A DNA stretch of 64,000 nt from Escherichia phage EF1-1. A program made the translations under genes and the position numbers. Shown in pieces: positions 32,521 through 33,213 of the stretch (its first letter is position 1; each line of letters starts with the position of its first letter). The notes under the pieces are model-generated. The model saw only the letters and a program-made list of their open reading frames with translations. It did no database searches and was not told the origin of the DNA. The stretch is from sequence record PQ571289. One strand, 5' to 3'.

Positions 32521-33213
32521 TTAAATAGCGGTTCCTTCGAAATCCGCCACATTTACGAGATTAATATTTTCAGATTTAGAAGTCAAGTTGTTTTCTGCAA
32601 CAGATTTTTCTTCAGTATCCGCCTCGTTACCTGCCACGTTACGAGGTTCTTCTTCACCGTAGGGATTACCGAATTTCAAAAGATTGATCAATTCTTCTTT
32701 GGAGAAGTTTTCTAAATCATCATCTGTTAATTCAATAATCTCGTCTTGTTCTTCAATAAATGTTTCACCACCAGAAAAAGCATCTCGCTTTTTAGCTACT
32801 TCCATAGCCTGTTCTGGTGTTGCTCCTGCATCAAGAGCAGCTAAAGCAAAATCTGACCCGCTTCCTACCGCATAATATTCTTCATCAATCGGATATGCAC
32901 GTGTTGGGTTGTTACCTTCATGCAGGAAAATACGTCCGTCTGGATGAACAACAAGTGCAATAAACTCTTCATCTTCTTTGTCTGGATCAGAGTGAATCAT
33001 CAAACCAGGGACAGCATCACGTGCTGCTTCGCACTGTAGGTTTTGTTCAAACCATTGAAAGAAAGAAAGCACGGAGGTCAGACGACCAGCACCACCTACA
33101 AGGTAATCTCCAATTTTTCGGACCTTTTTGAAATTAATAGAATCTACACGTCCACCGAAAGTTACCTTACCGTCACTCAAAATCTTATTTTTGGTTGCAA
33201 TAATTGTCGTCAC
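32521..33213 (-). CDS. HslV/proteasome-beta-like Ntn-hydrolase peptidase
   Basis: N-terminal (GTG)Met-Thr-Thr-Ile-Ile-Ala, GG..G motifs, AVGSGS; GAGGAGG RBS. Confidence 0.5.
   Translation of the reverse strand: MTTIIATKNKILSDGKVTFGGRVDSINFKKVRKIGDYLVGGAGRLTSVLSFFQWFEQNLQCEAARDAVPGLMIHSDPDKEDEEFIALVVHPDGRIFLHEGNNPTRAYPIDEEYYAVGSGSDFALAALDAGATPEQAMEVAKKRDAFSGGETFIEEQDEIIELTDDDLENFSKEELINLLKFGNPYGEEEPRNVAGNEADTEEKSVAENNLTSKSENINLVNVADFEGTAI

Follow-up and report, generated by a model that had tools for sequence, protein, structure and literature searches.

A proteasome-like peptidase of Escherichia phage EF1-1, its C-terminal extension and its linkage to a PhoH-like ATPase gene

A stretch of 64,000 nucleotides from Escherichia phage EF1-1 (PQ571289; the whole of this stretch is hereafter called the window) encodes on its minus strand, at 32521..33213, a protein of 230 residues that combines a proteasome-like fold with a helical and acidic C-terminal extension, and the second gene upstream of it encodes a PhoH-like P-loop ATPase. 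Genomes of Phapecoctavirus (phAPEC8-like Escherichia coli myoviruses of ~150 kb) share 99.5% identity with the window, which belongs to this group. In RefSeq, proteins 99-100% identical to the product are named 'peptidase HslV family' (COG5405) or 'ATP-dependent protease subunit', the gp058 protein of phage phi92 is annotated as 'putative 20S proteasome', and phage proteasome homologues have been described by Fuchs, Alva and Lupas (2021; PMC8665760). The identification as a peptidase is already present in public annotation and in that 2021 survey and hence is not new; what is added here is the placement of the protein as a long form of the PPH type rather than as HslV, the evidence against HslU as its partner, and the consistent linkage of the tail-bearing subfamily to PhoH. 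No phage member of the family is known to have been characterised. Two leads are offered by the present analysis: the protein appears to be built so as not to use HslU, and its tail-bearing subfamily lies next to PhoH wherever the flanking sequence sufficed.

The peptidase gene and its product

The gene comprises the following elements, all on the minus strand:

32521..33213: coding sequence of the HslV/PPH-like peptidase with an N-terminal threonine, 230 residues plus TAA stop (PHROG 1040, PF00227, RefSeq name)
33208..33213: GTG start and ACG codon of the predicted nucleophile threonine, Thr1 once the methionine is removed (T2 invariant; aligns with Thr1 of E. coli HslV)
33221..33225: Shine-Dalgarno sequence GGAGG, 7 nt before the GTG (direct reading of the sequence)
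32746..33213: catalytic core, residues 1-156, a beta-sandwich with helices H1, H3 and H4 and no H2 (AlphaFold2 model, fold matches, invariant residues)
32650..32745: conserved C-terminal extension, residues 157-188, an acidic linker and two helices with the family motif (AlphaFold2 model, motif conservation)
32524..32649: variable acidic tail, residues 189-230, predicted disordered (model confidence, charge; unalignable between lineages)

The open reading frame (ORF) begins GTG ACG ACA ATT ATT GCA (M-T-T-I-I-A, within the N-terminus MTTIIAT), exactly as read in an earlier note made from the sequence alone, and GGAGG stands 5' of this GTG. An in-frame TAA occurs nine codons 5' of the GTG with no alternative start between the two, so that GTG is the sole start. 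The GTG shares one base with the TAG stop codon of the upstream ORF, here called X, and this TAGTG overlap is, as far as sequence can indicate, a pattern typical of translational coupling. An M-T-T opening, or a close variant with threonine at position 2, is found in nearly all full-length homologues.

Profile searches and structural modelling together support the assignment of the gene to the proteasome-beta/HslV superfamily of N-terminal nucleophile (Ntn) hydrolases. The protein scores 25.6 bits against the Pfam Proteasome family PF00227 (gathering score 22.4; E = 1.1e-5) and matches the profile of PHROG 1040, 'peptidase HslV family', from end to end (E = 1.6e-63; residues 1-229 against profile positions 14-247 of 277), and its closest solved relatives by sequence are HslV proteins (Thermotoga maritima 1m4y, E = 4.9e-9; E. 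coli chains, ~1e-5). Moreover, an AlphaFold2 model based on 53 homologues has a confident core, with a predicted local distance difference test score (pLDDT) >90 for most of residues 1-160. Comparison of this model with the PDB by Foldseek yielded 964 matches at E<=1e-3; the 50 listed are all HslV, BPH or 20S beta subunits with probability 1.0, the top matches being the HslV structures 6kui, 1g3i and 1m4y (TM-score ~0.65-0.69 normalised to the target), and the same fold recurs in 46 predicted phage protein structures. The earlier note had made its assignment depend on whether the predicted fold is related to Ntn hydrolases, and the model indeed displays the four-layer alpha-beta-beta-alpha fold of proteasome-beta/HslV.

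The active site is equally well preserved. In an alignment of 53 sequences, down to 26% identity, T2, T3, I4, D14, K30, G43, G117, S118, G119 and D144 are invariant. When the protein is aligned with E. coli HslV, the sequence of which was checked against the PDB, T2, D14, K30, G43 and S118 correspond to Thr1, Asp17, Lys33, Gly48 and Ser124, and the set of residues typical of hydrolases is complete, with the equivalents of Thr1, Asp17, Lys33, Gly47, Ser129 and Asp166 all invariant. The predicted nucleophile thus lies where the earlier note had placed it by comparison with HslV, and the glycine-rich segments that it had likened to beta-type proteasome subunits are the conserved GGAG (G40-G43, the oxyanion region) and GSGS (G117-S120). 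The specificity of methionine aminopeptidase permits removal of the initiator methionine when the second residue is small. The E. coli HslV gene product opens with MTTIV and its crystallised chains begin at Thr2; by this analogy, methionine removal exposing Thr1 is the maturation route to be expected for the phage protein.

Homologues are numerous, with 2334 cluster representatives at E<=1e-3, and are present in 233 phage records (Escherichia, Klebsiella, Vibrio, Aeromonas, Caulobacter and Rhizobium phages), ~100 of which are Escherichia-phage records.

Relation to HslV and its partner HslU

The description of the protein as an HslV/proteasome-like Ntn hydrolase, with which the earlier note began, stands with respect to the fold and the catalytic residues but not with respect to HslV orthology, the protein being a distant homologue of the phage PPH type. 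Both NCBIfam equivalog models of HslV remain far below their cut-offs (NF003964, 32.2 versus 137 bits; TIGR03692, 31.4 versus 157.75 bits), and, judging from sequence and model together, the phage peptidase is no HslV orthologue. In the model, helix H1 (45-67) is formed, but residues 68-83 are coil, with an acidic, proline-containing loop (HSDPDKEDEEF), where HslV has the apical helix H2.

The surface with which HslV meets its ATPase is also altered. Residues K28, R83, R86 and L88 of HslV are positions of HslU docking or activation in HslVU structures. Residues F54, F57, K80 and Q114 belong to the pocket for the HslU C-terminus or to the activation relay (PMC6429459). At the E. coli HslV positions K28, F54, F57, K80, R83, R86, L88 and Q114 the window protein has S, L, F, S, D, a gap, D and P, so that only F57 is kept, and across the family these positions are mostly Q/S, L, F, S, D, gap, D and P.

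With regard to HslU itself, a tblastn search with the E. coli protein gave no match in the 64-kb window (E>7), which holds no HslU/ClpX homologue. Across the phage collection, E. coli HslU matched 164 records, mainly jumbo Erwinia and Salmonella phages; only four are Escherichia phages, and the two of these that are listed are a 240-kb jumbo phage and a 2.5-kb fragment. The HslU-like partner that the earlier note had proposed to seek elsewhere in the genome was therefore found neither in the window nor in the phage group, and the HslU-docking surface is unconserved.

Several candidate elements of an HslU-like system were considered and rejected. The segment 'NLLKF' of the tail resembles the 'DLSRF/NLAKY' of the HslU C-terminus, but as an internal mimic it fails, since K-F is unconserved ('LLTG', 'LVDG' in relatives) and the segment is not C-terminal. 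A docking motif at the PhoH C-terminus ('ITEVFI') proved to be the terminal helix of the PhoH domain, with equivalents across the PhoH proteins examined. A Walker-A scan of the window for an extra ATPase gave one additional match (48444..49571), which is spurious because it lies 5' of the true start codon.

The C-terminal extension and the linkage to PhoH

The last 74 residues (157-230) contain 20 D/E versus 5 K/R, for a net charge of -15. The long acidic tail noted earlier is thus acidic as described, but it is not uniform: conserved helices are predicted at 164-169 and 172-181 (pLDDT ~85), and only residues 189-230 (net charge -6; pLDDT <50 for 189-216) are predicted to be disordered and cannot be aligned between lineages. 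A survey of the 150 best 50%-identity cluster representatives identified 68 with a tail of at least 35 residues. In most of these 68, the core is followed directly by an acidic linker, by the motif [LI]T+E x4 [ML][ST]K[ED][EQ]L[LI]xx[LI][FL]G, and by a variable, strongly acidic region, typically of net charge -10 to -35 and sometimes with extra domains. The version of the motif in the window protein is LTDDDLENFSKEELINLL (motif LTxExxxxFSKEELINLL), and the motif is present in every PhoH-linked locus. Other C-terminal elements occur within the family: the Vibrio- and Aeromonas-type long forms (L087, L088, L086) terminate in a conserved HeH/Rho_N-like motif, e.g. LKMYADLLGVKFPHNIGQDTLAQKLDDKV, that is absent from the window protein, and homologues P0061-P0063 carry additional Cys-rich C-terminal domains.

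For the analysis of gene neighbourhoods, 80 IMG/VR loci were sorted into 28 groups by peptidase identity and all neighbouring ORFs were clustered, with peptidases of 185 residues or fewer taken as the short form. The PhoH-like ATPase is the commonest shared neighbour across the 28 groups; it lies on the same strand within 0.8 kb in all seven long-form groups and within 6 kb in none of the 21 short-form groups. The naive chance of such a split is 1 in 1,184,040, a figure to be read with the fact that the long forms are a clade, so that the events are non-independent. Seven further loci agree (L086, L087, L088, L089, L090, L091/92, L094), which come from Vibrio phage VnaP, Aeromonas phage 4L372D and the metagenomic contigs for P0093, P0117, P0161, P0152 and P0112, the last with PhoH immediately adjacent to the peptidase gene (23-bp gap). 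Wherever the flanking DNA sufficed, homologues with the motif adjoin the gene of a PhoH-like ATPase. P0119 (L095), in a type-A-like context (ribonucleotide reductase, RNR, ... ligase), bears a long tail that lacks the motif, and no PhoH is found within 5 kb of it.

Two arrangements can be distinguished. Type A (the window, phi92, FBKp34, and Vibrio and Aeromonas phages) has the order [lysozyme]-PhoH-(ORF of ~60 residues)-X (~155 residues)-peptidase ... DNA ligase, among genes of nucleotide metabolism. Type B has the order peptidase-(coiled-coil/transmembrane ORF)-PhoH-portal ... major head protein, with a sigma-like gene and the terminase divergent and upstream.

The features around the peptidase gene in the window, on the minus strand unless otherwise stated, are:

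33213..33716: upstream gene X, 167 residues (phrog_14834), all-helical (homologues in type-A loci; AlphaFold2 pLDDT 92.5)
33749..34507: gene for the PhoH-like P-loop ATPase (PF02562, E = 1.2e-36; PDB 3b85, E = 1.3e-15; RefSeq coordinates)
32500..32515: terminator-like GC hairpin TGCCCC-TTCG-GGGGCA followed by a T-run, 6 nt past the stop codon (consensus scan only)
33278..33307: sigma-70-like promoter match TTGACA-18-TAGAAT (11/12) within the 3' end of X (weak, the total for the region being not above shuffled expectation)
34524..34543, no strand assigned: GC-rich hairpin between the lysozyme stop and the PhoH start (scored on the plus strand only; any minus-strand role is presumptive)

This last hairpin may mark where a transcription unit of PhoH, X and peptidase begins on its upstream side, and with the TAGTG overlap and the terminator-like hairpin past the stop codon it would delimit the cassette. 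For the PhoH-like gene, starts at 34558 (longest ORF) and at 34507 (RefSeq) are both candidates, and the longer form overlaps the lysozyme gene and spans the hairpin at 34524-34543. In most type-A loci the gene directly upstream of the peptidase is a homologue of X; in Aeromonas phage 4L372D one gene stands between the two. X was modelled as a confident helical bundle, for which the fold search returned no informative match; its candidacy as a second, alpha-like proteasome subunit was ruled out (hhalign probability 0.5%).

Further observations concern the genes of these loci. The ORF of ~60 residues (phrog_8141) stands between PhoH and X in marine type-A loci (L022 5328-5522, L023 3789-4013, L087 2327-2524, L088 4332-4517) and is absent from the window; its 'LSD(K/Q)ELF' segment resembles the 'MSKEELL' of the peptidase tail motif. 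A basic N-terminal tail of ~40 residues (net +2 to +8) is present in almost every PhoH protein linked to the peptidase, its charge being the reverse of that of the acidic peptidase tail; an exception is the PIN-fused Vibrio PhoH, the N-terminal tail of which has a net charge of -4. In Vibrio phage 424E50-1 (L004 1334-2728) the PhoH partner has 464 residues and, by eye, a PIN-like N-terminus as in PhoH2-type proteins, so that PhoH proteins of more than one architecture accompany the peptidase. Aeromonas phage 4L372D encodes a second, divergent Ntn-hydrolase paralogue (L086 2432-2983; MTCIIALRD..., with VGCGEY replacing GSG; hhalign E ~1e-4, probability 58%) directly upstream of the long-form gene, the two forming a tandem pair. 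According to the annotation of a near-identical RefSeq genome, the region just upstream of the lysozyme-PhoH-X-peptidase block (window 35468..36310 and upstream, minus strand; L001 15469-18747) encodes a complete deoxythymidine diphosphate (dTDP)-rhamnose pathway (RmlA, B, C and D homologues) as well as glutaredoxin and class Ia RNR.

A natural deletion bears on the linkage. In the phi92-like isolate VEcB (L096, NC_052663.1 21495-22298), an in-frame deletion with its junction at a short AA(Q/H) microhomology joins PhoH residues 1-113 to the peptidase from residue 65 onward; X and the catalytic peptidase N-terminus are gone and the flanking genes are intact. The chimera lacks Thr1, Asp17 and Lys33, yet its RefSeq label remains 'peptidase HslV family'. 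As VEcB is a propagating isolate, the PhoH-X-peptidase cassette is dispensable for propagation; all three of its genes were hit by a single event.

Interpretation and comparison with known systems

We consider it probable that the protein is an active Thr1 peptidase of a PPH/RPC-like phage clade, that it needs no HslU, that it forms part of an accessory cassette with PhoH and X, and that its conserved tail helix has a role in docking or regulation. Under this proposal, host methionine aminopeptidase would remove the initiator methionine and expose Thr1. This residue would be the nucleophile and would work with Asp17 and Lys33 (D14 and K30 in the window protein), the oxyanion glycine and the serine of GSG, most likely inside a ring-shaped homo-oligomer like that of HslV. 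HslU would not be used, H2 and the basic HslU-docking residues being missing and HslU being absent from the phage. The peptidase would be part of a dispensable accessory cassette in which the PhoH-like ATPase is followed by X and then by the peptidase, and the C-terminal helix motif and acidic tail would project from the particle and serve docking or regulation, most plausibly for the PhoH-like ATPase and/or X. In the course of infection the peptidase would then probably break down or process particular proteins of host or phage, much as the earlier note had suggested a processing of virion or host proteins. PhoH ranks among the most frequent 'auxiliary' genes of phages, and no role in infection is known for it; should PhoH and the peptidase cooperate, this would provide a function for both and a new kind of ATPase-peptidase pairing.

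Several considerations weigh against this proposal. The PhoH linkage could stem from as few as two vertically inherited ancestral arrangements. PhoH-family proteins are described as SF1-like (superfamily 1-like) RNA helicases/ATPases and not as protein unfoldases (PMC7824862), so that a proteolytic partnership with PhoH would be unprecedented. Some proteasome homologues may not form stacked rings (Fuchs et al., PMC8665760). Finally, the literature on HslV of phages, on what it does and on any link between it and PhoH yielded annotation mentions only, and no experimental paper on these phage proteins was found.

The alternative that survives best, which we regard as a possibility of lesser weight, is a stand-alone orphan proteasome homologue, comparable to BPH, Anbu and PPH, next to which PhoH is present merely through inherited gene order and the tail of which would serve some other role, e.g. 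gating, solubility or substrate capture. Such a view accommodates the short-form phage homologues that occur without PhoH, the wide distribution of PhoH in phages that have no peptidase (PMC7824862), and the wider synteny, from RNR and lysozyme to ligase, that most type-A loci share and that is consistent with vertical inheritance. It accounts less readily for a PhoH-peptidase pair that is retained, in either order, in two unrelated genome settings although the genes between and around the pair differ, for the joint loss of tail motif and PhoH in L095, or for a VEcB deletion that spans mid-PhoH to mid-peptidase and leaves the flanks untouched.

A further reading, rather unlikely for want of any precedent for a proteolytic partnership with PhoH, is that the long-tailed peptidase and the PhoH-like ATPase (with X in type A) form an unrecognised two- or three-component system in which PhoH, instead of an AAA+ unfoldase, is coupled to the peptidase through the conserved 'MSKEELL' helix and the acidic tail. 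If so, phage PhoH, long a protein of unknown function, would gain a concrete partner.

It is also conceivable that the phage protein docks on the host HslU (ClpY) hexamer, replacing or poisoning host HslV, such that a hybrid ATP-dependent protease of phage-chosen specificity results. The HslV homology with an identical MTTI N-terminus, the presence of HslU in the E. coli host and the want of a phage HslU to serve as partner would all suit this idea. However, the positions K28, R86 and L88, which matter for docking or activation, are unconserved, and H2 is absent. The same is true of K80, F54 and Q114 (PMC6429459), several of the replacements across these positions being acidic. Moreover, the same changes are seen in family members from Caulobacter, Vibrio and Aeromonas phages. 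Because the docking residues are replaced, H2 is missing, the window has no HslU and few Escherichia phages have one, we take an HslU partner to be absent and a hijacking of host HslU to be very unlikely. A head (prohead) maturation or virion-processing protease seems more improbable still: although virion processing was suggested in the earlier note, and although in type B the genes for portal, a scaffold-like protein and the major head protein follow immediately on the peptidase-PhoH pair and that stretch shows no further protease, the window gene and all type-A genes sit in a region of early/metabolic genes (RNR, glutaredoxin, methyltransferases, dTDP-sugar enzymes) that is distant from the head genes, and VEcB propagates without the catalytic N-terminus. 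That the protein is no hydrolase in vivo, being instead a transpeptidase/ligase like connectase, an example of ligation on a proteasome fold (PMC8665760), or a non-catalytic scaffold, is extremely improbable in view of the invariant and complete hydrolase-type residue set and of closest structures that are all peptidases.

The preferred reading of an HslU-free Thr1 peptidase with a docking tail can be set beside four known systems. With HslV (ClpQ; E. coli, PDB 1e94, 1g3i), its best sequence and fold match among solved structures, the phage protein shares the Ntn-hydrolase beta-sandwich, the MTTI N-terminus without a propeptide, the (here expected) exposure of Thr1 by methionine removal, and the conserved Asp17, Lys33, Gly45-48 and Ser124; it differs in being only ~22-26% identical, in a first hairpin shorter by four residues, in the missing H2, the 74-residue C-terminal extension and the replaced HslU-docking residues, and in the lack of an HslU gene. 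BPH and Anbu are self-compartmentalising Thr1 peptidase homologues without a known ATPase partner, and BPH (5ovt, 5ovs) is among the top fold matches, but both are cellular, retain H2, and have other ring symmetry and C-terminal elements, with marginal sequence similarity (BPH, E = 1).

A further likeness, drawn from published descriptions, is with PPH and RPC. PPH, which is encoded by Caudovirales phages or in prophage regions, has ~140 residues, the related RPC has a C-terminal extension, and helix H2 is uniquely missing in both (PMC8665760); RPC is listed for Proteobacteria genomes only and not for phages (PMC8665760, Table 1). PPH and the phage peptidase are alike in being phage-borne group-I proteasome homologues with the catalytic triad present and H2 missing, and the nearest short relatives of the peptidase (phage proteins of ~130-160 residues, 56-72 bits) fit the PPH description. 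The differences are in size and context, as the ~140 residues of PPH contrast with a core of 156 residues plus a conserved helical motif and acidic tail (230 residues in all), and PhoH linkage is nowhere mentioned in the PPH paper (PMC8665760). With RPC, the phage peptidase shares both the lack of H2 and a C-terminal extension or domain that has been suggested as an interaction site. On the model, the phage peptidase thus fits the published phage clade PPH/RPC, and its long form could equally be called RPC-like.
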